Shown here piece after piece: positions 13,433 to 63,462 of a stretch of DNA of 64,000 nucleotides. The stretch spans positions 8,503-72,502 of the forward strand of contig CAZOOA010000003.1 of NCBI GenBank assembly GCA_964581355.1, in the 5' to 3' direction. The notes below the pieces were generated by a model. That model was not told the origin of the DNA and ran no database searches. It saw only the letters and a program-made list of their open reading frames with translations. The first letter of the stretch is position 1; each line of letters begins with the position of its first letter. Made by a program: the position numbers and the translations under genes. Source of the DNA: an uncultured Desulfovibrionaceae bacterium. Its GTDB lineage: Bacteria; Bacillota; Dethiobacteria; DTU022; UBA8154.

Positions 13433-13472
13433 GATGCATAATCCAACTGCTTTTTTTGCAAGCTGACTGATT

Positions 13473-39340: not shown

Positions 39341-41293
39341 ATGAAACAGCCGCTCTGGATCCCCAGTGAAGCCCGTATCAAGGAAGCCAATATGACTGAC
39401 TTTACCAGGAGGGTAAATGATCGGTTTGGCAAGGAGTTTTCCACTTACGAAGAACTGTACCAGTGGTCTATTGACAGTGCCCCGGATTTTTGGGAATTTA
39501 TGTGGGAATATGGCCAGGTCAAGCATTCCTCTCCCTACCAGCGGGTGGTCAGTAACATGGACAAAATGCTGGAATGTAAGTGGTTTGAGGGAGCAAAGCT
39601 AAACTTTGCAGAAAATTTGCTTCGTTATCGCGATAACCATACAGCGTTAATTTTTAAAGGAGAAGGGCAGGAACTGGTTTCGATTACCTATGAAGAGCTG
39701 TATGACCAGGTAGCACGTTTAAGTAAGTCGCTCCGGGAAATGGGGGTTAAAGTTGGAGACAGGGTCGCCGGCTTTATGCCCAACATGATTGAAACAGTGG
39801 TGGCTATGCTGGCCACAACCAGTATTGGGGCCATCTGGTCTTCCTGCTCTCCCGATTTTGGTGTGCAGGGGGCTTTGGATCGTTTTGGTCAAATAGAGCC
39901 AAAAGTTTTGTTTACCGCCAACGGATACTTTTACAATGGGAAAAGCCACACTTCCCTGGTGAAAGTGAAAGATATCGTAGCCCAGATTCCTTCAGTGGAA
40001 AAAATCATTGTGGTGCCCTATACCGAGGAAAAGGCTGATATCAGCGGCCTTTCCGATGCGGTTTATTATTCTGATTTTATCTCCTCGCAAAGTGGGCTGG
40101 AAGTCGAATTTGAGCAGCTGCCCTTTGATCACCCTGTTTATATTATGTATTCTTCCGGCACCACCGGAGCACCGAAATGTATCGTGCACGGTGCAGGAGG
40201 CACATTGATTCAGCATCTCAAGGAACTTATTCTGCATACAGATGTGAAACGGGATGATGTTGTCTTTTATTTTACTACCTGCGGCTGGATGATGTGGAAC
40301 TGGTTGGTCAGCACGCTGGCCGTGGGAGCTGCTGTCCTGTTGTATGATGGCAACCCCTTTTACCCGGATGCCGGTATATTATTTAAGGTGGCTGAAGAAA
40401 CAGGAATGACGGTATTTGGTACCAGCGCCCGCTACATTGCTTCCCTGGAGCAGGCTGGCGCCAAGCCAGGCCGGGACTATAATCTTGGTTCGGTAAAAAC
40501 CATGACCTCTACCGGTTCTCCGCTTTCCATCGAAGGCTTTTATTATGTTTACAGGGAAGTCAAAGAAGACATATGTCTTTCCTCCATCTCAGGTGGAACG
40601 GACATTATCTCCTGTTTTGCCCTGGGCAACCCCACGCTTCCGGTTTACCCGGGAGAACTCCAGTGCAGGGGCCTGGGCATGAAAGTGGAGGCATTTGATG
40701 ATAACGGCAACCCGGTGATAAACCAGCAAGGTGAGCTTGTTTGCACTCTGCCTTTCCCCTCCATGCCTGTCTATTTCTGGAACGATGAAGACAATGCCAA
40801 GTATCGCTCCGCATATTTCGAAGTTTATTCCAACGTCTGGCACCACGGGGATTATATTGAGATCACTGATACCGGTGGAGTGATTATCTACGGACGTTCT
40901 GATGCCACATTGAATCCTGGCGGAGTGCGTATTGGAACGGCGGAAATCTACCGGCAGGTGGAAACATTCCCCGAAATAGTTGACAGCCTGGTCATTGGCC
41001 AGAAGTGGGGAGACGATGAACGGGTGGTCCTCTTTGTCAAGCTCGCTGAAGAAGTAACGTTAAATGATGAACTGGTTACGAAAGTGAAGCAATCGATTAA
41101 GCAGGGTGCCAGTCCGCGGCACGTCCCGGCCAAGGTTTTGCCCATCGAAGATATTCCCTATACCATCAACGGTAAAAAAGTGGAGATTGCCGTCAGGAAA
41201 ATGGTTCACGGCGAAGAAGTGAAAAACCGTGAGGCCCTGGCCAACCCGGAGTCACTGGATTTATATCAAGACATTAAGGAATTGCAAGCATAA
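39341..41293 (+). CDS. Acetoacetate--CoA ligase (acetoacetyl-CoA synthetase)
   Basis: WFEGAKLNFAEN, WSSCSPDFG, YSSGTTGAPKCIVHG, WMMWNWL, GRSDATLNPGGVRIGTAEIY, NGKKVE. Confidence 0.92.
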   Translation: MKQPLWIPSEARIKEANMTDFTRRVNDRFGKEFSTYEELYQWSIDSAPDFWEFMWEYGQVKHSSPYQRVVSNMDKMLECKWFEGAKLNFAENLLRYRDNHTALIFKGEGQELVSITYEELYDQVARLSKSLREMGVKVGDRVAGFMPNMIETVVAMLATTSIGAIWSSCSPDFGVQGALDRFGQIEPKVLFTANGYFYNGKSHTSLVKVKDIVAQIPSVEKIIVVPYTEEKADISGLSDAVYYSDFISSQSGLEVEFEQLPFDHPVYIMYSSGTTGAPKCIVHGAGGTLIQHLKELILHTDVKRDDVVFYFTTCGWMMWNWLVSTLAVGAAVLLYDGNPFYPDAGILFKVAEETGMTVFGTSARYIASLEQAGAKPGRDYNLGSVKTMTSTGSPLSIEGFYYVYREVKEDICLSSISGGTDIISCFALGNPTLPVYPGELQCRGLGMKVEAFDDNGNPVINQQGELVCTLPFPSMPVYFWNDEDNAKYRSAYFEVYSNVWHHGDYIEITDTGGVIIYGRSDATLNPGGVRIGTAEIYRQVETFPEIVDSLVIGQKWGDDERVVLFVKLAEEVTLNDELVTKVKQSIKQGASPRHVPAKVLPIEDIPYTINGKKVEIAVRKMVHGEEVKNREALANPESLDLYQDIKELQA

Positions 41294-41379
41294 CTCCTCC
41301 GGTGCGGTGTTGACAGGGTTGCTCTGGTGTTTTTTCCGTAGATGCTATGTACATTACCTGAGAAGGAGGAGGGAATATA

Positions 41380-42993
41380 TTGGCTACCTTAGAAGAAAGA
41401 AAGCAGCAGAATTACGAGTTTTGGCTGCAGAAAGACCAGGAATTGCTTGAACGCCGGGAAGAGGCTTACAATGTGGGAGGCGAAAAACAGAAAGAGCGGC
41501 TGGCCAAGCAGGGCAAAAGTCCGGTTAGGGAGCTTATCAGCCAGTTGATTGACCCCGACAGTGATTTTTTCGAGGTGGGGTTGGATGCTGGTTATGATAT
41601 CGGTTATGAACAGCAGCAGCATATCCCCGGTGGAGGAATGGTTACCGGTGTGGGCAAAGTTCATGGCAAAGATTGCATGATTTTTGCCAATGAAAGCCGC
41701 ATGACTGCGGGAACCTACTACCCTATTACCTTGAAAAAGCACATGAGAGCTCAGCGTATCGCCGAAGAATGCGGCTTAACCTGCATTTATATTGCCGACT
41801 CCGGAGGACTGTTTTTGCCCCTGCAGCTGTATGCATTTGCCGATGAAGGAATGTTTGGTTCCATGTTCTATAACATGACCCGCATGTCAGCCAAGGGTAT
41901 TAAACAGTATACCCTGAGCACTGGGGGCAACACCGCCGGCGGTGCTTATATAGTTTACCTGGCCTGTGAATCTATTATGATCGATCAGATGGCCTATGCT
42001 TTCCTGGCTGGGCCTCCCATGGTGCGTTCGGCTATCGGAGAAGAAGTCAGCGCGGAAGACCTGGGGGGCGCCTATGTGCATACCCAGCATTCCGGGGGGT
42101 GTGACCATTTTGTCAGGAGTCAGCAGGAAGGGATCGCCAAGCTAAGAGAAATCATCGCTTTTGACCCGCCCCAGGAAACCCAGATTCACCGCTTTCCCTC
42201 CTGGAATGAACCCCACTTTAGTTCGGGTGATTTGATGGGGGCAGTCCCTTCCGACCCGTACCGTCCCATCAATGTGCGGGAAATTATCCAGTGTGTTGCG
42301 GATGACAGTTACTTTCAGGAATACAAGGCCAATTATGCTCCGGGACGGGGTGATTCCATTATCTGCGGCAAGATGTGGCTTAAAGGGATGCCCGTCGGGG
42401 TTGTGGCCTCCAACGGGACCGGAGTTATTTACATTGAGGCTGCCCGCAAGGCCACAGAGTGGGTTCTGCGCTGCGGCAACGATAAAACGCCTCTGCTGTA
42501 TATTCAAAACTCACCGGGATACATGGTGGGAAGCAATGAGGAGTGGGGCGGTATCGGGAAATACGGTGCAGACATGGTCCGGGCCTGCGCCTGTGTGGAT
42601 GTCCCCAAAATACAGTGGGTTATCGGTCCCGACCATGGAGCGGCAAACTACGGCATGTGTGGCCGGGCTTATCGTCCCCGGTTTGTTTTCCACACCATGC
42701 GGGCACGGACCACGGTTATGGCCGGCAAAACTGCGGCCTTTATTCTCGAAACCATTGAGAGGAAAAACAAGAAAGTCAAAGGCGAGGAAATTGATGAAGA
42801 GAAAATGACTGCGTTTCGTGAGAAAATGGTCGAAGGCTATGACCGGGAAGGGCATCCTTACGTGACCGGTTCCCTGCTTTATCACGACGGGATTCTTACC
42901 TGGGCTGAATCGCGCGACAAGCTGGCTCGCGCTTTTGAGGTCTCCCTATACCAGCCTATTCCCGATTCTCACTTTGGAAACCTGAAGTTTTAG
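41380..42993 (+). CDS. Acyl-CoA carboxylase carboxyltransferase subunit (3-methylcrotonyl-CoA carboxylase beta-like)
   Basis: AGTYYPITLKKHMRAQRIA, DSGG, TAGGAY, LAGPPMVRSAIGEEVSAEDLGG, GAANYGMCGRAY. Confidence 0.85.
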   Translation: MATLEERKQQNYEFWLQKDQELLERREEAYNVGGEKQKERLAKQGKSPVRELISQLIDPDSDFFEVGLDAGYDIGYEQQQHIPGGGMVTGVGKVHGKDCMIFANESRMTAGTYYPITLKKHMRAQRIAEECGLTCIYIADSGGLFLPLQLYAFADEGMFGSMFYNMTRMSAKGIKQYTLSTGGNTAGGAYIVYLACESIMIDQMAYAFLAGPPMVRSAIGEEVSAEDLGGAYVHTQHSGGCDHFVRSQQEGIAKLREIIAFDPPQETQIHRFPSWNEPHFSSGDLMGAVPSDPYRPINVREIIQCVADDSYFQEYKANYAPGRGDSIICGKMWLKGMPVGVVASNGTGVIYIEAARKATEWVLRCGNDKTPLLYIQNSPGYMVGSNEEWGGIGKYGADMVRACACVDVPKIQWVIGPDHGAANYGMCGRAYRPRFVFHTMRARTTVMAGKTAAFILETIERKNKKVKGEEIDEEKMTAFREKMVEGYDREGHPYVTGSLLYHDGILTWAESRDKLARAFEVSLYQPIPDSHFGNLKF

Positions 42994-43070
42994 TGGTTAA
43001 TTGATCAGGCTTTTGCCTGGGCCTAACGGTCCGGAAAAAATATTAAATCATTTAAAAGGAGTGAATTGTT

Positions 43071-44174
43071 TTGGCAGACAAGTTTCAAATGAATTTCCCC
43101 AAGAAAGTGCGCTTAGGAGACATCACAGTCCGCGATGGTTTTCAGCATGAAGAAAAATTTCTTTCCACCGATGCCAAAGTCTATTACGCAGAAGAAATGA
43201 TTCTTGCTGGCTTTAAAAGGGTGGAGTTGACCAATTTTGGCAACCCCCAGGGGATGCCCCAGTTTAAGGATGCAGACGAACTGTTCAAGCGGGTGCGGGG
43301 CAGCAAAAAGCTGCAGCGGGCCGGCATAAATTGGGACGATATTGAACTAACAGCTATTACCATCCGGGAAAGAGCAGTGGACCGGGCGATTCAGGCGAAA
43401 AAGGACGGATATGGCCCCGACCGGATCCTGATGATGGTTTCCACGGACGAGGAGCACCACTATGCCAATTCCGGCACAACACTGCCTGATTATTGGAAAG
43501 AAGCGGAGCGCTGCATTAAGAAAGCGGCCGACGCCGGAATCAAGATGTGCGGTTGTGTCAGCACTATCTGGGGCAGTCCCATCAGTGGTCCGACCCAGCT
43601 GGAAGAGGCTGTTAAATTCACCAAGTACTTCCTCGATATCGGTGCGGCGGATATTGAGCACGCTGACCACGATGGTTCAGCTCCCCCTGATCAGGTTTAC
43701 CGCTACTTTTCCATGATTTTGGATGCGCTGCCCGACACAGACCTGCATGTGGCCCACTTCCATGCCACCCGCGGTTGGGGTTTGGCCAACATCCTTGCTG
43801 CGCTCAATGCAGGCATCGATATCTTTGAAGGGACCCTGGGAGGTCTGGGTGGCCAGCCAGCCAACTTTGTGGACGACTGCCCCGTCCCCGGAACTGGTTC
43901 TTATTACTACAAGGACCCCAACGTTGTGGGCTTAACCCAGATGGAGGATATGGTGGTTATGATGGACGAAATGGGTATCGATATGGGTGTTGATGTAGAC
44001 AGGGTCCTGGAGTTGGGCACATTGATGGAAAAAACCATCGGCCGGCGTTTGCGTTCAGAAGCCATCTTGAACGGCCGCATTCCCAAGGAGGCCCGCCCGC
44101 AATACAAGCGTGCCGGTCTCCAGGAGAAAAAGCAGGAATTCGGTGAAAAGACAGGACAGAAGTTCCCCGAGTAA
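43071..44174 (+). CDS. Divergent HMG-CoA lyase-like (DRE-TIM) enzyme
   Basis: RDGFQ, HFH metal ligands, GGLGGQPANF in place of the GLGGCP loop. Confidence 0.75.
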   Translation: MADKFQMNFPKKVRLGDITVRDGFQHEEKFLSTDAKVYYAEEMILAGFKRVELTNFGNPQGMPQFKDADELFKRVRGSKKLQRAGINWDDIELTAITIRERAVDRAIQAKKDGYGPDRILMMVSTDEEHHYANSGTTLPDYWKEAERCIKKAADAGIKMCGCVSTIWGSPISGPTQLEEAVKFTKYFLDIGAADIEHADHDGSAPPDQVYRYFSMILDALPDTDLHVAHFHATRGWGLANILAALNAGIDIFEGTLGGLGGQPANFVDDCPVPGTGSYYYKDPNVVGLTQMEDMVVMMDEMGIDMGVDVDRVLELGTLMEKTIGRRLRSEAILNGRIPKEARPQYKRAGLQEKKQEFGEKTGQKFPE

Positions 44175-44256
44175 AAGGCAAAATGTCAATCGCTATAGTA
44201 GCTTAATAGGGTTGACATAACTGCCCTGTGCTTGATTGAATAAAGGGGGGAAAGCA

Positions 44257-45039
44257 ATGACCTGGGAGACAATCCGGGTGGAAGTGAAGGAGAATGTTGC
44301 TGTTATCACCTTTAACCGCCCCGATGCCCTCAACGCTATCAGCACGCAGTTGGCCAGTGACGTAATCTCTGTGATGAGAGAGTTGGCCGATGAACGAGAA
44401 GTTTGGGCTGCCATCTTGACTGCAGAAGGGGAAAAAGCCTTTTGTGTGGGGGCCGACTTGAAGGAAAGAAAAAACATGAGCAAGGAAGACATGATCAAGC
44501 AGCGGGAGTTGTTTGTCCGGGCTTTCAGAGCGGTATCTGAATTTCCCAAGCCGCTTATCGCTGCAGTGAATGGTTTTGCCATGGGCGGAGGCTTTGAGTT
44601 TGCCCTGGGCTGTGACCTGATCTATGCTTCGGATAATGCTGTGTTGGCTCTTCCAGAGGTTGGTCTGGGTATTATTCCCGGTGGAGGCGGGACCGTCAAC
44701 CTGCCCCGCTTGATCGGTAAAAGCAAGGCCAAGGAACTGATTTTTACCGGTCGGCGCCTCACTGCAGCGGAAGCAGAAGAGTGGGGAATTGTCAGCAGAG
44801 TGGCTCCCCGGGATGAACTGTTAAATGCCGCCCGGGAACTGTGCAGCGAAATCACGAAAAATGCCCCTGTGGCAGTTTGGCAAGCCAAAAAATCTGTTAA
44901 CCTGGGCATGGAAGTGGACATTGCCAGTGCTTTTGCCCTGGAGGCGGAATGCTATAATGTCTGCTTGAAGACGGAAGACCGTGATGAAGGACTTAAGGCG
45001 TTTAATGAGAAAAGAAAGCCTGTCTATAAGGGCTATTAA
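44257..45039 (+). CDS. Enoyl-CoA hydratase family (probable methylglutaconyl-CoA hydratase)
   Basis: AFCVGADLKER, GFAMGGGFE, LPEVGLGIIPGGGGT; context of a liu-type cluster. Confidence 0.88.
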   Translation: MTWETIRVEVKENVAVITFNRPDALNAISTQLASDVISVMRELADEREVWAAILTAEGEKAFCVGADLKERKNMSKEDMIKQRELFVRAFRAVSEFPKPLIAAVNGFAMGGGFEFALGCDLIYASDNAVLALPEVGLGIIPGGGGTVNLPRLIGKSKAKELIFTGRRLTAAEAEEWGIVSRVAPRDELLNAARELCSEITKNAPVAVWQAKKSVNLGMEVDIASAFALEAECYNVCLKTEDRDEGLKAFNEKRKPVYKGY

Positions 45040-45218
45040 GTGTCATTGTGTTGAACCTGCAACCGAGGGGCCGGCTTTGGCTGCTTTTGGACGGAACAGC
45101 CGGCCCCATTCAGGTTCACTTGGCCTTGTACGCTTGTGCAATGCAATGGAATGGGGTGATTGTTTAAACTTGTTTTCCGGTTCTGAGTCAGATTGAATAA
45201 TTACAGGAGGTGTTTGGG

Positions 45219-46379
45219 TTGGATTTTACATTTACCCAGGAACAACAGATGCTTGGAGACGAGGTTTACAGATGGGCGTGTGACTGGCTGGAGCCAAAAA
45301 TGGAAGAGATTGATGAAAAGGATGAATTTCCAGAAGATTTCTTTAAAGAAACAGCAAAGATGGATCTTAATGGTATTACCATTGATGAAGAGTATGGAGG
45401 TGCGGGGCTTGGCTATACCGAGGCCTGTATCGTTGCCGAAAATTTAGGTCGAATCTCTTCCTCTTTCGCCATGAACTGGGGGGCGCATCTCATCTTGTGC
45501 GTTGATAACATTCAACGCAATGCGTCCAAGGAGCAAAAGGAAAAATACCTGCCACCACTGGTTAATGGTGAAAAAGTAGGTTGTCTTGGTATTACAGAAC
45601 CCGATTCCGGTTCTGATGCCATGTCGATGCGGACTACCGCAGTCCGTGAAGGGGATCACTATATTGTAAATGGCAGTAAGACATTTATTACCAACGCCCC
45701 GGTAGCAGATTTAATGCTGTTTTATGCCAAAACAGCGCCGGACAAAGGGGCTCATGGTATCAGTGCTTTAGTTATGGATCTGGATACACCCGGTTATAGC
45801 TGTAATAAAATTAAAAAGTTTGGTATGCGGGGATCTCCTACAGGTGAGCTGGCCTTTAACGATGTCAAAGTGCCAGCGGATAATTTAGTCGGCGAGGAAA
45901 ATGGCGGAGTGAAAATATTGACGGGCGGCCTTTGCACAGAAAGGATCGTCCTTTCTGCTTGTGCCTTGGGTACCATGAGGGCTGCCATGGATTTAAGCGT
46001 AAAGTACGCCAAAGAGCGGCAGCAGTTTGGTCGTTCTCTCGGCAGCTTTCAGCTGATTCAGCAAAAACTGGCCGACATGTATTGTGCTTACCAAACCGCC
46101 AAGTGGTTGATATACTATGCAGCCTGGTATGTGGATCAACTGGAAGATAAGCGGGGCGGAAAGGGGACAGAGCTGGATAAGATTGCGGCTTCAGCTATCC
46201 TCTATGCTTCTGAAGCCTGCACCAAGGTCTGCCTGGATGGTGTGCAGATCCACGGTGGTTACGGATACTGCCTGGAATACCCCATACAAAGGCACCTCAG
46301 GGATGCCAAACTTTGGGAAATTGGTGCTGGAACTTCAGAAATAAGAAGGATGATTATTGCCCGCGAGATGTTGCGATAA
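45219..46379 (+). CDS. Isovaleryl-CoA dehydrogenase-like acyl-CoA dehydrogenase
   Basis: GLCTERIVL (IVD-type catalytic Glu position) and [12 protein letters not shown] (GAG in place of YEG). Confidence 0.85.
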
Positions 46380-46416
46380 TACGCAAGCTTTAAAAGTAAA
46401 GTTGTAAAAAAAGCGG

Positions 46417-46445
46417 CCCCCCGGCCATTTGTTGGGGCCGGGGGG
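46417..46445. terminator. GC-rich hairpin closing the liu-type operon
   Basis: CCCCCCGGCC / GGCCGGGGGG 10-bp stem preceded by an A-run. Confidence 0.55.
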
Positions 46446-46712
46446 AAATTCGCCGCAAGTAGACTGACAATTTTCTATATCCAAACAAGGCATTAAAGAT
46501 GCTCTATTCATAAGCTTTTAAATTTACTGAAAAAAGTTTTGATCAAAAAAAGGAGTTTGCGAAAAAAGGTAGAATATTTAATAGTGAAATGAACTAAACA
46601 TATACCAAAATGAACAAAATCATGGTTCCTTGAACGGGAATGAACTGGACTATATTCAAATCTTGTTTATATCAAGTTGATTACATAATTACTTTTTCAG
46701 GAGGTTGTTTTC

Positions 46713-47180
46713 GTGGGTAAAAAACGGAAAAATAAGGAGATACAAACCAAAGAAGCTAAAAAAGAAACTTTTAGCTCAAAAATGAAAAAAGCAAAAGAAC
46801 AAAATGAGTTGAACTTTGAGAACAACCCGCAACCCAAACCAGCAGAAGAAAAAGTGGACATTGCAGAGCTTCCCGAAGAGGAACAAAAAGTTACCCTGGA
46901 TGTTTTGGAAAAAGAACGTGTCCGGCGACTCACCTTTAATACTGAAGAAGAAAAAAGAATTTGGAATAAGATGAACAAAAAACGCAAGCTCAATACACCT
47001 TATTTTTTGCTGGGTGTAGGCATTAACTTCTTGCTTTACTGGGGCGGGGTGGATCTGTCTCAAAATATCAGCGTGGGGGCTATTGTGGGGCTCGGCGTTC
47101 CCCTGGCAACTATGTTTATCGGTGCAGAACTTCATTACCGTTTTTTTATGCAGCCCAAGGAACAGCACATGCAGCGTTAA
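46713..47180 (+). CDS. Hypothetical protein, charged N-terminus and two C-terminal TM segments
   Basis: GGAGG RBS; K/E-rich N-half; two hydrophobic helices. Confidence 0.7.
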   Translation: MGKKRKNKEIQTKEAKKETFSSKMKKAKEQNELNFENNPQPKPAEEKVDIAELPEEEQKVTLDVLEKERVRRLTFNTEEEKRIWNKMNKKRKLNTPYFLLGVGINFLLYWGGVDLSQNISVGAIVGLGVPLATMFIGAELHYRFFMQPKEQHMQR

Positions 47181-47535
47181 AAAACAAAGAAGGAAGGAGT
47201 AAGTATCAGAATATCCTTGGAATGTTTTTAAAGGAGAGCTTGTAAACAGGTAATCACGACAGGTGTAAGGCGCAAAATAGTCGGATAATTGCAAGAGTTC
47301 AAAACTTTATATTTTGAGAACGTTTGGTTAAAGGGGGTGATGTTTTCTGTCTAATTGCACTGTGTAAGCATAAAGGGCGAGGAGGTGAAATATAATCAAG
47401 CATTTTTAGTATCAGAAAGCAATTAAGTGTTAAGTAGTAGATTGTAACTTGCTTCACTTAAAAGGAGGTATTCATACTTATTCTACGTTGTTATTTGTAA
47501 GTTGATTTATAATTCATAAAAGGGGGTAAGTTCCC

Positions 47536-47799
47536 TTGTTTAAAGACATTCATCCCAGTTTCTGGTGGGGAATTGCCATTTTCTACGGGTATTGTATGGT
47601 CTTCATGATCATTGAAATGAGTGTCCCGGGTTTTATTTACCACACGAAAATCGGAGCGGCCCCAGCGGCCTATATCTATTCGTTGACTGTAGGCTTGTAT
47701 ATCATCCCGTTGATTGTATCGTTTATGTGGTTTTACCTGCCTGAACAGGACCAAAAACGCAGGGCTGCACAGAAGTCCGGGAAGGGGGTCGACCAGTAA
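47536..47799 (+). CDS. Small two-TM accessory protein of the solute symporter (DUF485-like position)
   Basis: Two TM helices; stop overlaps the symporter start. Confidence 0.75.
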   Translation: MFKDIHPSFWWGIAIFYGYCMVFMIIEMSVPGFIYHTKIGAAPAAYIYSLTVGLYIIPLIVSFMWFYLPEQDQKRRAAQKSGKGVDQ

Positions 47800-51364: not shown

Positions 51365-51402
51365 CTGTAAAAGTTTGATGCACGTGAGGTTTTTACATTT
51401 TC

Positions 51403-51437
51403 AAGGTGCCCGCACCGTGCAGCGGGCACCTTTTTTT
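51403..51437 (+). terminator. Intrinsic terminator
   Basis: AAGGTGCCCGC-N8-GCGGGCACCTT followed by a T-run. Confidence 0.88.
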
Positions 51438-51552
51438 GAATAAAAACGGAGTTTTCCTTTTCACGGTATCGGGTCCGGTTATTTTTTTCTCTGTTATTGT
51501 TGTCATTACCAGGTGCCTGGTATAAAGTAAAAGAAAAACAAAGGTGGTCGTC

Positions 51553-52920: not shown

Positions 52921-54102
52921 ATGAAAGAGACGGTCATCGTAAGTTACGCCAGGACCCCCTTTGGACGAATGTTGGGAGCACTAAGCGAAATTCCTGCCGT
53001 TGATTTGGGAGCAATGGTGATAAAAGAGGTGATCAGTCGGGCCGATCTTGACCCTGCCTTGGTTGATAATGTTTTTATGGGAATGGTCGTCCCGGCGGGG
53101 ACTGGGCAGATTCCGTCCCGCCAGGCAACGATTAAAGCAGGTCTCCCCTACGAGGTGCCTTCGGATACGATTAACAAAGTTTGTGCTTCCAGTTTGAGGG
53201 CTGTAAATCTGGCTGATTCCTTAATCCGTAACGGCGATGCGGAAATTATTATCGCCGGTGGCATGGAAAACATGAGCCTTTGCCCGTACCTGATGCCCAA
53301 GGGAAGAAAGGGGTACCGCATGGGCCACGGCAAGCTGGTGGATTCAATGGTCCACGATGGCTTATGGTGCCCGTTCTATAATGTACATATGGGGCTGCAT
53401 GGCGAAATTGCGCGCACAGAATTCGGGGTAACCAGGGACGAGATGGATCGCTTTGCGCATCGCAGCCATAGCCTGGCTGTGTCTGCTTTCGAAGAAGGCC
53501 ATCTGAAAGAAGAACTTATGCCGGTCTCCATACCCCAAAAAAAAGGGGACCCGATCATTTTTGACCGGGATGAAGCACCTCGAAAAGATACAACCCTGGA
53601 AAAACTTTCTGCTTTATCCCCCGCCTTTAGTAAAGAGGGTACTATCACAGCAGGAAATGCTCCGCCGGTAAACGATGGCGCTTCAGCTTTAGTTTTGATG
53701 TCCCGTGATAAAGCTGAATCTTTGGGGCTTCGTCCCTTGGCTGCAATTGTCTCCCAGGGCATGGCCTCCAGGGAATCGGCATATATTTCTACCGTTCCCT
53801 ATTACGCCGGTGAAAAAGCGCTGACTAAGGCCGGCCTTACTTCGGATGATTTAGATTTAATTGAAGTGAACGAGGCTTTTGCAGCTGTTGCCCTGACCTG
53901 CATGAAGCTGGGGAACTGGCTGGAGGAGAAGGTAAATGTAAACGGAGGGGCTGTGGCCATCGGGCATCCCATCGGTGCAAGCGGAGGGCGTATCCTGATG
54001 ACGTTGATTTCTGAGTTAAGGCGCCGTCAGGGAACATATGGAATGGCTACCATCTGTAGCGGTGCTGCCCAGGGCGAGGCAACAATTATCAAAGCACTGT
54101 AA
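52921..54102 (+). CDS. Acetyl-CoA C-acetyltransferase (thiolase)
   Basis: NKVCASS, NEAFA, GHPIGASG, ICSG. Confidence 0.95.
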   Translation: MKETVIVSYARTPFGRMLGALSEIPAVDLGAMVIKEVISRADLDPALVDNVFMGMVVPAGTGQIPSRQATIKAGLPYEVPSDTINKVCASSLRAVNLADSLIRNGDAEIIIAGGMENMSLCPYLMPKGRKGYRMGHGKLVDSMVHDGLWCPFYNVHMGLHGEIARTEFGVTRDEMDRFAHRSHSLAVSAFEEGHLKEELMPVSIPQKKGDPIIFDRDEAPRKDTTLEKLSALSPAFSKEGTITAGNAPPVNDGASALVLMSRDKAESLGLRPLAAIVSQGMASRESAYISTVPYYAGEKALTKAGLTSDDLDLIEVNEAFAAVALTCMKLGNWLEEKVNVNGGAVAIGHPIGASGGRILMTLISELRRRQGTYGMATICSGAAQGEATIIKAL

Positions 54103-54183
54103 GAGTGTGGAAAACAGATAGGGCTATATCCAGAAGATAAAAAAGCAACGTTTTTTTTAATACTATAGAAGGAGGGCGTTTCC

Positions 54184-55038
54184 ATGCAGATAAAAAAGGT
54201 CATGGTGGTTGGTGCAGGCCAAATGGGGGGAGGCATTGCGCAGGTCTGTGCGCAAGCGGGTTATCCTGTCGTAATGAGAGATATCGAGGAAAGCTTTGTG
54301 GAGAAGGGTCTCGGCGCTATAGCAAAAAACTTGCAGCGAAGTGTTGACAAAGGCAGGATTAGCGAAGATGACAAGAAATCAGTCTTAGACCGAATACAGG
54401 GGACAGTGGAACTGAAAGATGGTGCCGATGCAGATATTGTTATTGAGGCCATTGTGGAACGAATGGATATCAAGGAAGAGCTCTTCAGTTCTTTGGACGA
54501 AATGTGTCCATCCCACACCATCTTGGCCAGCAATACTTCTTCTTTGCCGATCACCAATATTGCAGCTGTAACCTCGCGTCCAGAAAAAGTTATTGGTATG
54601 CATTTCATGAATCCGGTTCCGGTGATGAAGTTGGTGGAGATCATTCGCGGCCTGGCCACTTCCGATGAAACCTACCAGGTGGTTGAAGATCTAACCATGA
54701 AGCTGGACAAAGAGCCCGTAGAGGTAAATGATTTCCCAGGATTTGTATCCAACCGCATTTTGCTGCCAATGATTAACGAAGCCGTTTACTGCCTGATGGA
54801 AGGTGTTGCCCGTCCTGAAGCCATCGATAATGTCATGAGATTGGGCATGAATCATCCCATGGGCCCACTGGCACTGGCTGACCTCATCGGTTTGGATACG
54901 TGCCTGTCAATTATGGAAGTTCTGCATGAAGGGCTGGGGGACCCTAAGTATCGCCCCTGCCCGCTATTGCGAAAATATGTCGCTGCCGGTTGGCTGGGAC
55001 GCAAAGCAGGCCGGGGCTTCTACGATTATAGTGGATAA
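54184..55038 (+). CDS. hbd: 3-hydroxybutyryl-CoA dehydrogenase
   Basis: [27 protein letters not shown]. Confidence 0.94.
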
Positions 55039-55181
55039 AAAGCATAAGGTCCGATCACTTTAAAGGAGAACTCGCTTTTCTGGCTGGAGACTATTTTGCT
55101 GTGTAACCCTTTTATAACAGAGGCCAGGGCCGGGAAGCGGAAACTCTATTTCTATTCTATGAGGTTGGGAGTGTTCCATAG

Positions 55182-56321
55182 ATGGATTTTACTTTTTCCG
55201 AAGAGCAAAAGATGATGAAAAAGCTATTCCGTGAGTTTGCTGAGAAAGAAATTGCACCCCGCGCCGACCATATCGATAAAACAGGCGAGTTTCCCCGGGA
55301 AAACCTCCAAAGCCTGGGCCGGGAAGGACATATGGGCATCCCTATTCCCGAAGAATGGGGGGGGGCTGGAGCCGATTTTCTGACTTATATGTTCTGCCTG
55401 GAGGAAGTGTCCAGGGCTTGTGCATCTACGGGGGTTATCCTTGCTGTTCATACCTCCTTGGGTATTTACTCCATTTTATATCACGGAACCGAGGAGCAAA
55501 AAAAGAAATTCGTAACCCCCCTGGCCCAGGGAGACATGCTTGGCGCCTTTGCTTTAAGCGAACCCGAGGCTGGCTCCGATGCTGCTGCCTTAAAAACCAG
55601 GGCCCGCAAAGATGGGAATCATTATGTTCTGAATGGTAATAAAGTTTGGATTACCAGCGCTGGTGAAGCAGATGTTTACGTTGTCTTTGCCACCATGGAC
55701 CCCGAAAAGAAAACCCGGGGAATTACAGCCTTCCTGGTAGAAAAAGACACCCCGGGATTACTCATTGGACCCAAAGAGAAGAAAATGGGCTTGAATGGTT
55801 CGGCCACCTGCGAACTGATTTTTGATGACTGCCGTGTCCCTGCAGAAAACCTACTTGGAGAAGAAGGCGGTGGCTTCAAAATTGCCATGTCCCTGTTGGA
55901 TGGTGGACGCATCGGTATTGCCGCCCAGGGCCTGGGCATCGCCCAGGCTGCTTTTGATCAAGCTCTGCAGTATTCCAAAACCAGGGAACAGTTTGGCCGG
56001 CCCATTGGTGACTTCCAGGCTATCCAGTTTAAGCTGGCCGACATGGCCACAGAGCTGGATGCAGCCCGTCTTATGGTGTACCGGGCAGCGTTTCACAAAG
56101 ACAACGACCTGCCCTGTACCCGTGAAGCTTCCATGGCCAAGGTTTTTGCTACTGATTTGGCCATGAAAGCAGGAATTGAGGCCGTCCAGATTTTCGGCGG
56201 ATACGGATACAGCAGGGAATATCCGGTAGAGCGCTATATGAGAGATGCAAAAGTTACCCAAATCTACGAAGGCACAAACCAAATTCAAAGAATTGTTATT
56301 TCCAGGGAGTATTTAAAATAA
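55182..56321 (+). CDS. Short/branched-chain acyl-CoA dehydrogenase
   Basis: [30 protein letters not shown]. Confidence 0.93.
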
Positions 56322-56386
56322 ATAATTCGGCAGCAGTCATTTTAGTTTAACATAACTAATTTAAAAAAACGAAGGGGGAAGTATTA

Positions 56387-57526
56387 ATGAATTTTACGAT
56401 GTCGCCTGAACACGAAATGATGCGCAAGTCTATTCGAGATTTTGCCGAGAACGAAATTGCACCCGGAGCCGCAGAAAGAGACGAAAAAGAAGAATTCTCG
56501 CGGGAAATCTTCGAAAAAATGGCTGAAATGGAATTGACCGGTATACCGTGGCCAGAAGAGTACGGAGGAGCTGGCGACGATTATTTAAGCTACGCTATTG
56601 CAGTCGAGGAGATATCCCGGGTGGATGCATCGGCTGGAGTTACCCTTTCAGCCCATACTTCTTTGTGCTGCTGGCCCATTTACACATACGCTAACGAAGA
56701 ACAATTAAAGAAGTATTTGACACCCCTGGCCAAGGGGGAAAAGCTGGGCGGATACGGCTTGACAGAGCCACAAGCAGGTTCTGATGCAGGCAGTTTGCAG
56801 ACTACAGCTGTTCTTGACGGGGACCATTATATCTTAAATGGTAACAAGATTTGGATTACAAACGCTGATGATGCCGAGATTTACGTGGTGTTTGCTTCAA
56901 CAGACAAGAGCAAGAAGGCTAAAGGGATTAGTGCTTTTATCGTTGAGAAAGGCACCCCTGGCTTTTCCTTTGGTACTAAGGAAAAGAAACTGGGGATCCG
57001 CTCTTCGTCGACCAATGAGCTAATTTTCGACGACTGTAAGGTGCCCAAGGAAAACCTGTTAGGCAAAGAAGGCGAAGGGTTTAAAATTGCTATGACAACA
57101 TTGGATGGCGGACGTAATGGCATTGCCGCCCAGGCACTGGGCATTGCCCAGGGTGCATTGGATGCAGCAGCAGATTATGCTAAAACCCGGGAGCAATTTG
57201 GCCGACCCATAGCCGATTTTCAAGCCGTTTCTTTTATGATTGCCGATATGGCTACCAAGATTGAAGCAGCCCGCCTCTTAACCTACCAGGCCGCTTTCCT
57301 GGAAAGCCAGGGCCTGCCTTATGCCAAGGAATCTGCCATGTCCAAGCTTTATGCCTCTGATGTGGCTATGGAAACAACAGTAAATGCTGTCCAAATATTT
57401 GGTGGATATGGTTACAGCCGGGAATACCCGGTAGAACGCTTTATGAGAGATGCGAAGATCACCCAAATTTATGAAGGAACCAACGAAATTCAAAGGTTGG
57501 TTGTAAGCCGTTACTTGCTGAAGTAA
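56387..57526 (+). CDS. Butyryl-CoA dehydrogenase-like acyl-CoA dehydrogenase
   Basis: [30 protein letters not shown]. Confidence 0.93.
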
Positions 57527-57551
57527 AACTACTAAAAACCCGGCCGAGGAG

Positions 57552-58088
57552 TTGAAGAGGTTGTCGGAAACAAACAAAGGATTGGTGCTGGTCTACACTG
57601 GAGATGGAAAAGGAAAAACTACGGCGGCCCTGGGGCTAGCTTTCAGGGCCGCCGGGCACGGCTTTAAAATACTTGCGATTCACTTTTTAAAAGGAAGAGA
57701 CTATGGAGAGGCCAAAGCTGCTGAACACCTGCCTAATTTTGAAACCGTTAAGGCGGGTAGAGACAAATTTGTAAACCGGGATAACCCTGATCCTGAAGAT
57801 GTCAAGCTGGCAGCAGAAGGCATGGCCAGAGCCAGGGAATCGGCAGCAAAGGGAACACACAACCTCATTCTGCTCGATGAGATTAATGTCGCTTTGAACT
57901 ACAACCTGGTCTCCCTGCAAGAAGTTTTGGAGTTAATCGATACTCGTGCTCCCGGCGTTGATCTGGTTTTAACCGGGAGAAATGCTCCTCCGGAGATACT
58001 GGAAAAGGCTGATATGGTTAGTGAGGTCAAGGACATCAAGCACCACTTTGCTTCGGGGACCAAAGCGCGCGAGGGCATTGAATACTAA
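57552..58088 (+). CDS. cobO: Cob(I)alamin adenosyltransferase (CobO/BtuR type)
   Basis: YTGDGKGKTTAA, LDE, LTGR, GIEY C-terminus. Confidence 0.92.
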   Translation: MKRLSETNKGLVLVYTGDGKGKTTAALGLAFRAAGHGFKILAIHFLKGRDYGEAKAAEHLPNFETVKAGRDKFVNRDNPDPEDVKLAAEGMARARESAAKGTHNLILLDEINVALNYNLVSLQEVLELIDTRAPGVDLVLTGRNAPPEILEKADMVSEVKDIKHHFASGTKAREGIEY

Positions 58089-58165
58089 CCGACACAGCCC
58101 ATTCAGCAACAACAGGGGATGAAAAACCTTGTTTGCGTCCGAGGTGCTGGTTTTTCTTGAACTAA
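58082..58165 (+). mobile_element. Short or decayed family 1 element, copy C
   Basis: ATACTAACCG start; 23 bp (58109-58131) identical to the reverse complement of 16871-16893; GAAAAACC/GGTTTTTC inverted pair; ACTAA at 58161-58165. Confidence 0.6.
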
Positions 58166-58192
58166 GGCATACAATTAGGTGGTGTTAAAACA

Positions 58193-59140
58193 TTGGATAT
58201 TGTTGAGGGCTTACTAAAAGGTGACCGCAGGGCCCTGGCCAGGGCAATTTCCCTGGTAGAAAACGAAGATTCCCGAAAAAGAGAAACCCTGCAGCAGATT
58301 TATCCCCATACGGGCAATGCTTATATAATCGGTTTTACCGGTTCTCCCGGCTCGGGAAAAAGCTCCCTGGTGGACCGGATTGTCGGTATCATGCGCGGTG
58401 AAGGGAAAAAGGTTGGCATTATTGCTGTTGACCCGACCAGTCCCTTTACCGGGGGAGCTATCTTGGGAGATCGAATTCGCATGCAGGAGCATACAGAAGA
58501 CAAAGATGTATTTATACGCAGTATGGGAACACGGGGCAGCCTGGGTGGACTGTCCAGGGCTACCCGTGATGTGGTGCAGCTTATGGATGCTTTTGGCAAA
58601 GACATTATTATCATTGAAACAGTGGGTGTAGGACAATCGGAAGTAGATATCGTTAAAAATGCCGATACAACCATAGTTGTTTTAACTCCGGCTGGAGGAG
58701 ACAGTGTCCAAACAATAAAGGCGGGGATTATGGAGATTGCAGATATTTTCGTGATTAACAAAGCAGATCTGCCCAATGCAGATCGGACCCGCACGGAAGT
58801 AAGCGTGATGTTGGATTTAAATGAGAAAAGCAGCTGGAGACCTCCCATTGTCCAAACAGTTACCTTGAAAAATGAAGGAACCGATATATTATGGCAAGAG
58901 GTTCAGGGTCACAAAGGATACCTGGAAACAGAAGGGCTTCTGTCCAGTCTGAGACTGGCAAGGGCAAAACGTGATATTGAAGATCATATCGAGCATCTCA
59001 TCAAAAGCAGGGTTTGGGACCAGGTTATAGGGACTAACATGTTTGAAAAAGCCATCAAACAGATTCACAACAAGGAAACGGATCCCTTTTCTGCTGCACA
59101 GAGCATCCTGGAGCGAATCAGTCTGGACAACAAAGATTAA
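58193..59140 (+). CDS. meaB: MeaB/ArgK GTPase chaperone of the B12 mutase
   Basis: GSPGSGKS, VDPTSPFTGGAILGDRIRM, ETVGVGQSE, NKAD. Confidence 0.94.
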   Translation: MDIVEGLLKGDRRALARAISLVENEDSRKRETLQQIYPHTGNAYIIGFTGSPGSGKSSLVDRIVGIMRGEGKKVGIIAVDPTSPFTGGAILGDRIRMQEHTEDKDVFIRSMGTRGSLGGLSRATRDVVQLMDAFGKDIIIIETVGVGQSEVDIVKNADTTIVVLTPAGGDSVQTIKAGIMEIADIFVINKADLPNADRTRTEVSVMLDLNEKSSWRPPIVQTVTLKNEGTDILWQEVQGHKGYLETEGLLSSLRLARAKRDIEDHIEHLIKSRVWDQVIGTNMFEKAIKQIHNKETDPFSAAQSILERISLDNKD

Positions 59141-59204
59141 AAGCTTGTAGGTTGAGAAAGGAGGTGCGTGCCCGGTTTTTTCAGGAAAGAACCGGGCAAG
59201 AACA

Positions 59205-60872
59205 ATGTTTAATGAAGAAAAATTGAAAAAAATCAAAGAGGGCAAAGAAAAGTGGGAAAAAGAAACGTTACCCAAGTTTCAAAACAGGCCAGCCAAGTTT
59301 GTCACTGTTTCCAGCAAACCGTTGAAGGAACTGTACTCACCCCTGGACATTAAGGATTTGGATTATGAGAAAGATCTTGGATTTCCCGGTGAATATCCTT
59401 ATACCCGTGGAGTCCAGGGCAACATGTACCGCGGCCGAATTTGGACCATGCGCCAGTTTTCCGGGTTTGGAACAGCCAAAGAAACCAACGAACGCTACAA
59501 GTATCTTTTAAAACACGGCCAGACCGGGCTCAGTGTGGCTTTCGACATGCCAACCATTATGGGCTACGACTCTGACCATCCCCGTTCGGTCGGTGAAGTT
59601 GGGCGCTGCGGTGTGGCCATTGATTCCCTGGCGGACATGGAGATCCTGTTTGACGGCATTCCCCTGGACCAGGTTACCACATCGATGACCATCAACGGAC
59701 CGGCTTCAGTGCTCTGGTGTATGTACATTGCAACTGCTGAGAAGCAGGGTATTTCTTCGGATAAAATTGGGGGGACCATTCAGAACGATATCTTAAAAGA
59801 ATATATTGCCCAAAAGTCCTGGATTTTCCCTCCTGAACCGTCTATGCGCCTGATTACGGATATCTTTTCTTTTGCCTGTGATCATGTGCCCCGCTGGAAC
59901 ACTGTCAGTATCAGCGGCTACCATATCCGGGAGGCGGGCTCCACGGCAGTGCAGGAGTTGGCCTTTACCCTGGCTGACGGTTTCGCTTACGTGGAAGCCG
60001 GTATTGAAGCAGGCCTGGACGTGGATGATTTTGCTCCCAGGTTGTCTTTCTTCTTCAATTCCCATATTGACTTCTTCGAAGAAATTGCCAAGTACCGGGC
60101 TGCCCGCCGCATCTGGGCCAAGCGCATGAAAGAAAAATATGGAGCCAAGGACCCGCGCTCCCTGCTCCTTCGCTTCCATACGCAAACCGCGGGATGCAGC
60201 CTGACTGCGCAGCAGCCGGAGAACAATATTATCCGTACAGCTTACGAAGCCCTATCTGCTGTTCTGGGGGGGACCCAGTCCCTGCACACCAATTCCATGG
60301 ATGAAGTGCTGGCACTTCCCACAGAAAAAGCTGTCCGCATTGCCCTGCGCACCCAGCAGATTATGGCTTATGAAACAGGTGTAACCAATACCATTGACCC
60401 GCTGGCCGGCTCTTACTTCATTGAAGCGCTCACCGACGAAATGGAAGCAGAGGCCGAGGAATATTTCCGCAAAATCGAGGAGTTAGGCGGCGTGTTGCCA
60501 GCAATTGACCAGGGCTTCTTCCAACGGGAGATTGCCGATGCAGCGTTCCAGTATCAAAGAGAAATTGAAGAAAATGAACGGATAATTGTAGGAGTCAATG
60601 AATTCACCATTGATGAACCCATTGATACAGAAATCCTTAAAATTGACCCCGATCTGGAACGTGCCCAGTGCGAAAGAGTCCAAAAAGTTCGGGAAACCAG
60701 GGACAACGACCTGGCTCAACGCAGGTTGGAGGAATTAAAGAAAGCGGCCCAGGGGACAGACAACCTGATTCCCTACATGTTGGATGCCGTCAGGGCTTAT
60801 GCGACAGAAGGAGAAATTATCGGCATGCTGAAGGAAGTGTTTGGAGAGTATAAGGAACAACCCATTTTTTAA
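59205..60872 (+). CDS. icmA: B12-dependent acyl-CoA mutase large subunit, isobutyryl-CoA mutase signature
   Basis: MRQFSGF (Phe at the MCM Tyr89 site) and KEYIAQKSW (Gln at the MCM Arg207 site); [11 protein letters not shown]. Confidence 0.82.
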
Positions 60873-60897
60873 TACCGGGTAGGGAGGCTGAGAAAGA

Positions 60898-61320
60898 ATG
60901 AATAAAGAGCATAAAATCAGGGTTTTGGTAGCTAAGCCCGGCTTGGATGGACATGACCGGGGGGCCAAGGTCGTAGCCAGGGCATTAAGGGATTCCGGTA
61001 TGGAAGTGGTTTATACGGGACTGCACCAAACGGCAGAACAGGTTGTAGAAGCAGCGATCCAGGAAGATGTTGATGTAGTAGGCTTAAGCATCCTTTCCGG
61101 CGCTCACATGACTCTTTTCCCACGCATTCGGCAGCTTTTGAAAGAAAACAATGCCGACGACATTGTTTTAATCGGTGGAGGTATTTTCCCCGAGGATGAT
61201 ATGGATGAACTGCTGCAAAAAGGCGATGCGGAAGCCCTTTTCACCCCCGGAACACCTACCGAGGAAATAGTCAAGTGGATCAAGGATAACGTAAAAAAAG
61301 AAGGTGCAGGAACGACGTAG
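60898..61320 (+). CDS. icmB: Cobalamin-binding small subunit of the mutase
   Basis: GLDGHDRG (DxHxxG), GLSILSGAH. Confidence 0.88.

Positions 61321-61369: not shown

Positions 61370-63462
<2,093 letters not shown>

Follow-up and report, generated by a model that had tools for sequence, protein, structure and literature searches.

Gene content of the locus

We analysed a stretch of 64,000 nucleotides (hereafter the window: positions 8,503 to 72,502, forward strand, of contig CAZOOA010000003.1 in assembly GCA_964581355.1) from an uncultured bacterium of the GTDB lineage Bacillota; Dethiobacteria; DTU022; UBA8154, and describe in it a block of genes at 39341-61320 that, as far as its sequence can tell, is probably a catabolic island taking isovalerate and isobutyrate, or the CoA esters derived from leucine and valine, to acetyl-CoA. 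The block holds 17 family-assignable genes, all co-oriented on the + strand, plus two small conserved open reading frames (ORFs). Families were called from Pfam and NCBIfam profile scores against curated cut-offs, and the closest solved relatives were taken from a ranking of Protein Data Bank (PDB) entries. An earlier reading of the same DNA made from its letters alone (the sequence-only reading) had named these gene families, and every one of them was recovered on the + strand where that reading had placed it. The genes of the block are as follows, G011 being the closest relative, a genome of the same family and of another genus:

39341-41293 (+): acetoacetate-CoA ligase, AMP-forming, 650 aa (TIGR01217 962.6 bits, cut-off 520.9; NF002937 979.6 bits, cut-off 639)
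41380-42993 (+): carboxyltransferase of the type of the beta subunit of 3-methylcrotonyl-CoA carboxylase (MCC-beta), no alpha subunit (Pfam Carboxyl_trans; PDB ranking with MCC-beta)
43071-44174 (+): divergent protein like 3-hydroxy-3-methylglutaryl-CoA (HMG-CoA) lyase, 367 aa, of a family we call HMGLx (NCBIfam lyase 161 bits, cut-off 246)
44236-45039 (+): crotonase-family enoyl-CoA hydratase, putative methylglutaconyl-CoA hydratase and/or crotonase (Pfam ECH_1)
45210-46379 (+): isovaleryl-CoA dehydrogenase (IVD), 389 aa (PDB top matches and residue signature)
46713-47180 (+): 155-aa Lys-rich protein with C-terminal membrane helices (no Pfam or NCBIfam family; 55% identical in G011)
47536-47799 (+): 87-aa membrane protein, likely small subunit of the symporter (no Pfam match; 71% identical in G011)
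47799-49448 (+): sodium:solute symporter (SSF), candidate for carboxylate uptake (Pfam SSF)
49679-51364 (+): AMP-forming acyl-CoA ligase, candidate for isovalerate/isobutyrate activation (Pfam AMP-binding and C-terminal domain)
51544-52446 (+): canonical HMG-CoA lyase, 300 aa (NF004283 359.9 bits, cut-off 246; GLGGCP loop)
52921-54102 (+): acetyl-CoA C-acetyltransferase, thiolase (NF006086 562 bits, cut-off 526)
54184-55038 (+): 3-hydroxybutyryl-CoA dehydrogenase, Hbd (NF004474 485.7 bits, cut-off 408)
55182-56321 (+): short-chain (butyryl-CoA type) acyl-CoA dehydrogenase (Pfam; YEG catalytic motif)
56387-57526 (+): second short-chain acyl-CoA dehydrogenase (Pfam; YEG motif)
57552-58088 (+): ATP:cob(I)alamin adenosyltransferase, CobO/CobA type (Pfam; NF004637 187 bits, cut-off 185)
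58193-59140 (+): MeaB-type G-protein chaperone (TIGR00750 365 bits, cut-off 240.75)
59205-60872 (+): isobutyryl-CoA mutase (ICM) large subunit, IcmA type (Pfam MM_CoA_mutase 763 bits; Phe/Gln signature)
60898-61320 (+): B12-binding small subunit, IcmB type, 140 aa (Pfam B12-binding; DxHxxG)

The 3' end of the 87-aa membrane ORF overlaps the start codon of the symporter gene. Uptake had been called ActP-like in the sequence-only reading; the SSF family is upheld and ActP itself is not, as the NCBIfam scores of this protein all lie under the cut-offs (VC_2705-type 186.6, ActP 114.9 against a cut-off of 750, MctC 109.8 bits). The acyl-CoA ligase, 95% identical in G011, reaches 729.6 bits with PRK12583, which is also under the cut-off.

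Enzymes of the proposed leucine branch

Examination of catalytic residues and of solved relatives places the first acyl-CoA dehydrogenase, whose gene adjoins that of the hydratase, in the IVD type. The five best PDB matches of the 389-aa protein are all IVDs (356-334 bits; the next match has 295), and it carries EIGAGTSE, with a Gly at the site of Glu376 of the medium-chain enzyme, where butyryl- and medium-chain dehydrogenases have YEG, the catalytic Glu being found instead on helix G (...TERIVLSA...). The carboxyltransferase falls by its scores into the MCC-beta lineage (human MCC-beta 418 bits and Pseudomonas aeruginosa MCC-beta 400 bits, against about 170 for the beta subunit of propionyl-CoA carboxylase and transcarboxylase 12S and 88 for GcdA), and its orthologues are 59-91% identical to it. 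The hydratase scores 222 bits with clostridial Crt, 210 with M. xanthus LiuC and 178 with AUH, and this one enzyme may serve both the leucine and the valine branches.

The two HMG-CoA lyases counted by the sequence-only reading are not equivalent. The 300-aa copy at 51544-52446 has the GLGGCP loop that marks the canonical enzyme, and the 367-aa copy in the first part of the block, which scores under the lyase cut-off, does not. The best PDB matches of the latter are HMG-CoA lyases (about 1e-29) at only some 25-30% identity, and homologues at 67-81% identity occur in more than 567 species, mostly Desulfobacterota (Desulfomonile, Syntrophaceae, Desulfobacteraceae, Desulfatiglandales) with some Bacillota. 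In an alignment of 81 HMGLx members RDG.Q and HFH, the residues of metal binding and catalysis, are retained, the catalytic Cys of GLGGCP is replaced by Gln (GLGGQP) in 81/81 sequences, and the family has invariant motifs of its own (HADHDGS, STIWGSP, MVSTDEEHH and a YYY(K/R)DP insert). The hydratase gene directly adjoins HMGLx in most related loci, an acetoacetate-CoA ligase gene follows it in Desulfomonile-type loci (order hydratase, HMGLx, ligase), and an MCC-beta-type carboxyltransferase gene (59-76% identical) lies 5' of it in about ten loci. Because of these three neighbours we infer that HMGLx would be the anaerobes' version of the acetoacetate-releasing lyase, with an altered proton-transfer device.

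Two other readings of this protein were discarded. A catalytic Cys shifted to the sequence ...DDCP... fails in the relatives, which have Val, Thr or Ile there. A role as a 5S-like transcarboxylase subunit beside the carboxyltransferase was rejected as the main reading because the genome has no PYC_OADA domain and acetoacetate-CoA ligase adjoins HMGLx in many loci; the protein matches only HMG-CoA lyases and enzymes of the isopropylmalate synthase type.

The B12-dependent mutase and the proposed isobutyrate branch

Alignments to 1REQ, 2XIJ and 4R3U showed that the large mutase subunit of the block has Phe (RQFSGF) and Gln (YIAQK) at the positions occupied in methylmalonyl-CoA mutase (MCM) by Tyr89 and Arg207. 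We take the pair Phe/Gln to be the signature of ICM and the pair Tyr/Arg to be that of MCM. The small subunit carries DGHDRG, that is DxHxxG, at residues 17-22. The second split mutase of the genome (C12:48061-50158) provides an internal control, having the Tyr/Arg pair (RQYAGF, YVARG) and lying with SucCD, an epimerase and an MmdA-type carboxyltransferase in a succinate-to-propionate set. The mutase of the block is, on these residues, of the ICM type because it has the Phe/Gln pair and the MCM signature is confined to the C12 paralogue, which supports the conversion of isobutyryl-CoA to butyryl-CoA put forward by the sequence-only reading. Methylmalonyl-CoA, 2-hydroxyisobutyryl-CoA and pivalyl-CoA mutase were rejected as identities on the signature residues, which give no sign of pivalate use; the protein has VAFD where 2-hydroxyisobutyryl-CoA mutase (HcmA) has TDFD, and Phe where HcmA has Ile (4R3U alignment).

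Just upstream of the C12 set, which also includes a sigma-54 regulator gene, lies a molybdopterin oxidoreductase frame (C12:39206-41896). In a metagenome-assembled genome (MAG) of Syntrophaceae a split B12 mutase (L044:9048-11166) lies directly 3' of carboxyltransferase, hydratase and HMGLx genes; it has Leu at the Tyr89/Phe site, neither Gln nor Arg at the second site and Asn for a conserved His (GYNYREAG), and from these residues it may belong to a different substrate class, for example pivalyl- or isovaleryl-CoA.

Conservation and habitat

The synteny proposed by the sequence-only reading as a check is conserved in G011, where the same genes, both small ORFs included, are found in the same order at 55-95% amino-acid identity as far as a contig that ends after meaB. 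In four other soda- or salt-lake runs there are contigs that leave none of the 30 bins of the stretch uncovered and that bridge the junctions between IVD and the 155-aa ORF, ligase and lyase, lyase and thiolase, and acyl-CoA dehydrogenase, cobO, meaB and icmA, often with zero differences; at least three studies of soda or salt lakes, as well as a 2012 run, have the sequence in their metagenomes. The gene order is therefore no assembly artefact, and it is more than chance. Because only 2 of 33 genomes of the family and 16 of 149 of the class carry the carboxyltransferase, the block looks like an accessory island. A liu-like module beside a B12 mutase recurs in two Desulfobacterota MAGs, with an ICM-type enzyme in L087 and the unusual Leu-type enzyme in L044.

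Transcription units and regulation

The following regulatory features were found in and beside the block:

37277-39031 (+): sigma-54-dependent activator, PrdR-like, with two PAS domains, AAA+ and helix-turn-helix (HTH) domains (Pfam; NCBIfam PrdR 519 bits, under cut-off)
39241-39257 (+): sigma-54 (-24/-12) promoter-like site TTGGCATTGTTTTTGCA, 84 nt 5' of the first gene
51403-51432 (+): intrinsic terminator, 11-bp stem and T run
61370-61397 (+): intrinsic terminator closing the cluster, 5' of ligA

The two strong terminators, together with a 1.4-kb AT-rich gap at 46380-47798, 3' of the IVD gene, divide the block into what are predicted to be at least three transcription units (39341-46379, 47536-51364 and 51544-61320). 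Among the spacers of the block TTGGCATTGTTTTTGCA is the sole good -24/-12 site; the loose pattern is expected by chance about five times per window, and the weight of TTGGCATTGTTTTTGCA comes from its position. Expression of the first unit probably depends on the neighbouring PAS/sigma-54 activator, a homologue of which, 77% identical, lies near the cluster in G011. The GC content of the block is 0.47-0.53, the genome having 0.49.

Proposed route and its direction

In the route that we propose, the Na+ symporter of the second unit, with its small subunit, would import the acid and the adjoining ligase would make its CoA ester; isovaleryl-CoA and isobutyryl-CoA could alternatively come from leucine and valine through ferredoxin-dependent keto-acid oxidoreductases. 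In the first unit IVD would oxidise isovaleryl-CoA and the carboxyltransferase would carboxylate 3-methylcrotonyl-CoA, after which the crotonase-type hydratase would hydrate the product, the divergent lyase would split HMG-CoA and acetoacetate-CoA ligase would reactivate the acetoacetate. The third unit would contribute the second, canonical lyase and the thiolase, splitting acetoacetyl-CoA from both branches, and also Hbd and the two butyryl-CoA-type dehydrogenases for beta-oxidation, into which its B12 set (CobO, MeaB, IcmA/IcmB) would feed butyryl-CoA made from isobutyryl-CoA. That the flow is catabolic is suggested by the adjacency of the AMP-forming acetoacetate-CoA ligase to the lyase, since acetoacetate would then be a product that is subsequently activated, and by the presence of two AMP-forming ligases, an uptake symporter and IVD. 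Gene families, signature residues, gene order and habitat in soda lakes are direct findings; substrates, direction and regulation are deduced.

Taken together, the block appears to work like the liu pathway joined to the ICM and beta-oxidation route known from Syntrophothermus lipocalidus. The sequence-only reading had called the organism an isovalerate and isobutyrate degrader with a liu-type pathway. A catabolic route to acetyl-CoA is still the best reading and IVD, MCC-beta and HMG-CoA lyase are in place, but the liu pathway is incomplete as it was written, since MCC-alpha is missing and the assembly has no biotin carboxylase.

The missing biotin carboxylase and the single biotin carrier

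The assembly (3.24 Mb in 175 contigs) has 100% marker completeness and 4.6% contamination. The Biotin_carb_C profile found no match in it even at E<=1, the CPSase_L_D2 profile found two CarB genes and weak ATP-grasp proteins only, and tblastn with the carboxylases of relatives returned CarB only. A profile search for PYC_OADA likewise found nothing in the genome, so neither OadA nor 5S is encoded. Exactly one MKM biotinyl domain was found, in a 164-aa protein with the N-terminus MRKFRVYVNG, a Pro/Ala linker and the sequence EAMKME; other Biotin_lipoyl matches were rejected as biotin carriers, the one on C54 being a lipoyl E2 and that on C6 GcvH. The 164-aa protein is the gamma subunit of a Na+ decarboxylase, its gene lying in one operon (C4:62929-65104, - strand) between those for the membrane beta subunit (OAD_beta, 530 bits) and for a 176-aa one-helix delta subunit (weak OAD_gamma match), the small anchor expected of such pumps. 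G011 has the same operon.

With the biotin carboxylase absent, the carboxylation cannot be the textbook ATP-driven step, and no source of energy for it is evident. Provided that no carboxylase gene is missing from the assembly, the MmdA-type and the MCC-beta-type carboxyltransferase must share a single carrier, and this carrier must be charged without ATP, either by reversal of the beta subunit on a Na+ gradient or by MmdA from methylmalonyl-CoA. The gamma subunit of the Na+-translocating decarboxylase is our leading candidate for the carrier used by the carboxyltransferase, put forward tentatively. The further proposal that 3-methylcrotonyl-CoA is carboxylated without ATP through this methylmalonyl-CoA-decarboxylase gamma carrier, here and also in the carboxylase-less genomes G124 and G139, is possible but somewhat doubtful. 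In such a scenario the beta subunit would run in reverse, driven by the very steep Na+ gradient directed into the cell and by the alkalinity of the soda-lake water outside it, and would so charge the gamma subunit; charging by MmdA from methylmalonyl-CoA would be the less likely alternative. Dimroth and Hilpert reportedly established in 1984 that Na+ decarboxylase pumps can be reversed in vesicles, and molar Na+ with an alkaline outside would favour such reversal.

This proposal is weakened by the solitary carboxyltransferase genes of family f6 (described below) and by the fact that carboxyltransferase and pump lie on different contigs, that OAD_beta occurs in none of 80 related loci, and that OAD_beta is no commoner among the genomes with the carboxyltransferase (12 of 16) than in the class (120 of 149). 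Of these 16 carriers, 12 have some biotin carboxylase and four do not (G000, which is the present assembly, G124, G139 and G142, with completeness of 100, 99, 99 and 91%); 15 have a carboxylase and/or OAD_beta, and the profile across the 149 genomes is not discriminating. No carboxylase ORF of the carriers exceeds 510 aa except one of 1100 aa in G135, and no MCC-alpha of about 650 aa with fused biotin carboxylase and carrier domains was seen. G011 has one biotin carboxylase, a 486-aa ORF, and the paralogous pair in G042 is a PycA-like protein beside a PycB-like gene. A complex prediction for the carboxyltransferase with the C-terminal part of delta scored 0.00 with an uncertain partner fold, and has no weight either way. 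In the collection of literature that we searched there was no paper on methylglutaconyl-CoA decarboxylase, on pivalyl-CoA mutase or on methylcrotonyl-CoA with glutaconyl-CoA decarboxylase, and none joining isovalerate, syntrophy and HMG-CoA lyase.

Some further observations concern the same proteins. Free-standing MKM biotinyl proteins of 70-94 aa lie in or beside the carboxyltransferase-hydratase-HMGLx module at L055:11286-11501, L091:5365-5571 and L054:5970-6254, loci that belong to Desulfosarcina alkanivorans and two MAGs and have no biotin carboxylase gene nearby. The delta subunit (C4:64577-65104, - strand) has two copies of PE.VAAI..A and a long acidic linker in G000, G011, G018 and G004, and one copy in the other 19 aligned members of the family; G000 and G011, both of the two-copy kind, are the two family genomes with the MCC-beta-type carboxyltransferase. 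In G139 a second carboxyltransferase copy is found behind TRAP transporter, ligase and MaoC genes. Directly upstream of the delta, gamma and beta genes, and co-oriented with them in G000 and G011 (L107), lie genes for a three-subunit 2-oxoacid:ferredoxin oxidoreductase (C4:65131-67659, - strand), an arrangement that suggests a route from 2-oxoglutarate to propionate.

Alternative explanations and points against the assignment

An ordinary ATP-dependent liu pathway, whose MCC-alpha or AccC-type carboxylase either fell outside the 175 contigs of the draft or has diverged beyond recognition, is in our estimate unlikely. The draft state of the assembly, the biotin carboxylases in 12 of the 16 carriers and the 486-aa enzyme of G011 are in its favour, and the biotinyl protein of the module in D. 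alkanivorans and the two MAGs could be served by a housekeeping carboxylase; on the other side stand the full marker completeness, the empty Biotin_carb_C and tblastn searches, two further genomes (G124 and G139, each 99% complete) that also have no biotin carboxylase, and, the 1100-aa ORF of G135 aside, the lack of a fused MCC-type alpha subunit of about 650 aa in all 16 carriers. The block might also be run in reverse, fermentatively or biosynthetically, from thiolase through Hbd, hydratase and butyryl-CoA dehydrogenase (Bcd) to butyryl-CoA and isobutyryl-CoA, so that isobutyrate would be formed much as chain-elongating clostridia form it, with the carboxyltransferase acting as a Na+-pumping 3-methylglutaconyl-CoA decarboxylase. 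The thl-hbd-bcd genes are the classical butyrate-synthesis set, and the only biotin machinery of the genome is of the decarboxylase type; yet, unlike in the usual layout of butyrate-synthesis operons, no etfAB genes lie beside the bcd-like genes, HMG-CoA synthase is absent from the block, and the AMP-forming acetoacetate-CoA and acyl-CoA ligases and the uptake symporter point inward. ICM is reversible, and isobutyrate-producing clostridia are reported to carry it (PMC7764203, PMC10832561), whereas an IVD-type dehydrogenase is present here and it is isovalerate, supplied as the substrate, that induces the matching module of Desulfococcus multivorans. Taking both sides into account, we consider reverse running improbable. 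Nor do we give much credence to the view that the 22 kb are no unit, with liu-like, transporter/ligase and butyrate/ICM operons merely side by side. The terminators after 51364 and 61320, the AT-rich gap, the single sigma-54 site and a Desulfobacterota liu-like module mostly without the mutase all agree with it, but the whole arrangement with its small ORFs is kept in G011 although 31 of the 33 family genomes lack it, the thiolase of the third unit is needed for the acetoacetyl-CoA of the first, and in L087 and L044, too, a B12 mutase lies next to the liu-like module.

Several observations weigh against the catabolic island itself. Besides the absence of MCC-alpha and of any biotin carboxylase, the carboxyltransferase (78-82% identical) stands alone directly upstream of leuS and comEA in another family of the class (f6), an order kept in five genomes (G124, G139, G137, G130 and G135; L117-L122) that have no HMGLx orthologue, and it therefore has a further role beyond this pathway, or one that is shared. 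The acyl-CoA ligase and the symporter fall short of all curated cut-offs, the hydratase is as near to crotonase as to LiuC and is the sole hydratase of the block, a recognisable sigma-54 promoter stands in front of the first unit only, the route, with its two AMP-forming ligations, would be expensive for a syntroph, and no RNA run holding the sequence was among the matches listed.

Comparison with known systems

The liuRABCDE genes of P. aeruginosa and P. putida cluster IVD, MCC-beta, methylglutaconyl-CoA hydratase and HMG-CoA lyase, and the chemistry proposed here, from isovaleryl-CoA to acetoacetate and acetyl-CoA, would be the same. The block departs from that cluster in that one of its defining features is absent, there being no MCC-alpha (LiuD) in cluster or genome, and in the non-canonical lyase of its liu-like unit. 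It further differs in having a sigma-54 activator instead of the MerR-type LiuR, an extra, divergent lyase, the acetoacetate-CoA ligase, transporter and ligase genes, a linked B12 mutase and a strict anaerobe as host.

Comparison with the Na+ decarboxylases (GcdABCD, MmdABCD(E)) showed that the gamma subunit of this genome shares their M(R/K)KF.V.VNG start, Pro/Ala linker and EAMKME. In Acidaminococcus the gene for the alpha subunit is unlinked, as it is here, and GcdA and MCC-beta share the vinylogous position on which they act. The carboxyltransferase of the block, however, belongs to the MCC-beta lineage, being neither a GcdA (88 bits) nor an MmdA (about 25-27% identity), and its reaction, unlike theirs, would have to go towards carboxylation. 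The methylmalonyl-CoA:pyruvate transcarboxylase (12S/5S/1.3S) of propionibacteria and syntrophic propionate oxidisers carboxylates an acyl-CoA without ATP, and a carboxyltransferase, a TIM-barrel protein of the HMG-CoA lyase family and a biotinyl protein of about 70 aa are likewise found together in L055 and L091; HMGLx, in contrast, matches HMG-CoA lyases and not 5S or OadA, the genome has no PYC_OADA domain, and no carboxyl donor is evident.

The closest match to the first unit is the cluster Dmul_28430-28480 of D. multivorans, which comprises AcsA6 (650 aa), a one-subunit Mcc (530 aa), HmgL (390 aa) and EchA2 (260 aa), all four being formed only in cells grown on 3-methylbutyrate according to proteogenomics (PMC5109826). 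The components are the same and their sizes and order match closely, the match being one of size and order and not of sequence, and this supports the physiological role proposed for HMGLx; that cluster, too, includes a regulator and has no alpha subunit listed. D. multivorans is a sulfate reducer of a different phylum, its regulator is of the HTH type instead of a sigma-54 activator, and its cluster is without the IVD, transporter, beta-oxidation and mutase genes that the window has.

For the second branch the nearest system is the icmAB-cobO-meaB cluster Slip_0757-0760 of the isobutyrate-isomerising syntroph S. lipocalidus, where ICM is proposed to isomerise isobutyrate to butyrate ahead of beta-oxidation (PMC5017805). 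Split subunits, the Phe/Gln pair, DxHxxG and adjacent MeaB and adenosyltransferase genes are shared by the enzymes of S. lipocalidus and Streptomyces cinnamonensis and by that of the window, whose set differs in being predicted to be co-transcribed with thl-hbd-bcd and in being joined to the leucine-branch module.

In anoxic sediments and digesters the decay of protein yields branched-chain fatty acids, which are bottleneck intermediates there; according to a comparative genomics study, most genes for degrading them syntrophically have yet to be assigned (PMC5017805). The block would provide a complete, testable gene set for the leucine and valine branches in an uncultured soda-lake member of the Bacillota. 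It also draws attention to a D. multivorans-type module spread over hundreds of anaerobic species, with an MCC-beta without alpha and a lyase without the textbook catalytic Cys, and to at least three near-complete genomes without any biotin carboxylase. Should the Na+ pump indeed drive the carboxylation, this would be an acyl-CoA carboxylase powered by the sodium motive force and acting physiologically in catabolism, and a novel way of saving energy for organisms that live close to the thermodynamic limit.

Lifestyle and electron flow

The anaerobic lifestyle supposed in the sequence-only reading agrees with the 2-oxoacid:ferredoxin oxidoreductases, the Na+ decarboxylase, the EtfAB pair beside iron-sulfur and HdrA-like genes and the selenocysteine machinery (SelA and SelB) of the genome. 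That reading had asked for etfAB to be located, and a single etfBA pair was found, between genes for a CCG/4Fe-4S protein and an HdrA-like protein, so that the dehydrogenases of the block appear to have electron acceptors. Hydrogenases of the FeFe and NiFe kinds, DsrA and multihaem cytochromes were searched for in the assembly and not found; a glycine-reductase family search was uninformative, its control having no match. Two formate-dehydrogenase-like molybdopterin ORFs (C12:39206-41896 and C102:1076-2671) each have one in-frame TGA, which likely encodes selenocysteine. Since hydrogenase, Dsr and multihaem cytochrome were not found and these selenocysteine-type genes are present, formate appears as the only obvious low-potential outlet. 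A syntrophic lifestyle is a possibility.

Other features of the window

A further operon, which is context only, lies near the start of the window:

3057-5439 (+): three-subunit 2-oxoacid:ferredoxin oxidoreductase, Vor-like operon (Pfam POR_N/PFOR_II, TPP_enzyme_C, POR)

The sequence-only reading had suggested that this operon could supply the acyl-CoAs; its family is borne out, and the supply is not supported, the substrate specificity being unreadable and the operon lying 34 kb off, behind unrelated genes. Just 5' of it a 249-aa ORF (2060-2809, +) has a HepT-like domain (toxin-type nucleotidyltransferase-partner).

No riboswitch or other RNA family reached its gathering score within the cluster. 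Elsewhere in the window a c-di-GMP-I-GGC riboswitch aptamer (13353-13434, +; 76.5 bits, gathering score 59) lies upstream of a 604-aa ORF (13682-15496). In the cluster, GC-rich hairpins GGCCCCCCGGCC...GGGGCCGGGGGG follow the IVD gene (46414-46446) and the symporter gene (49545-49580), and the spacer between cobO and meaB (58082-58165) holds an ATACTAA motif and a hairpin.

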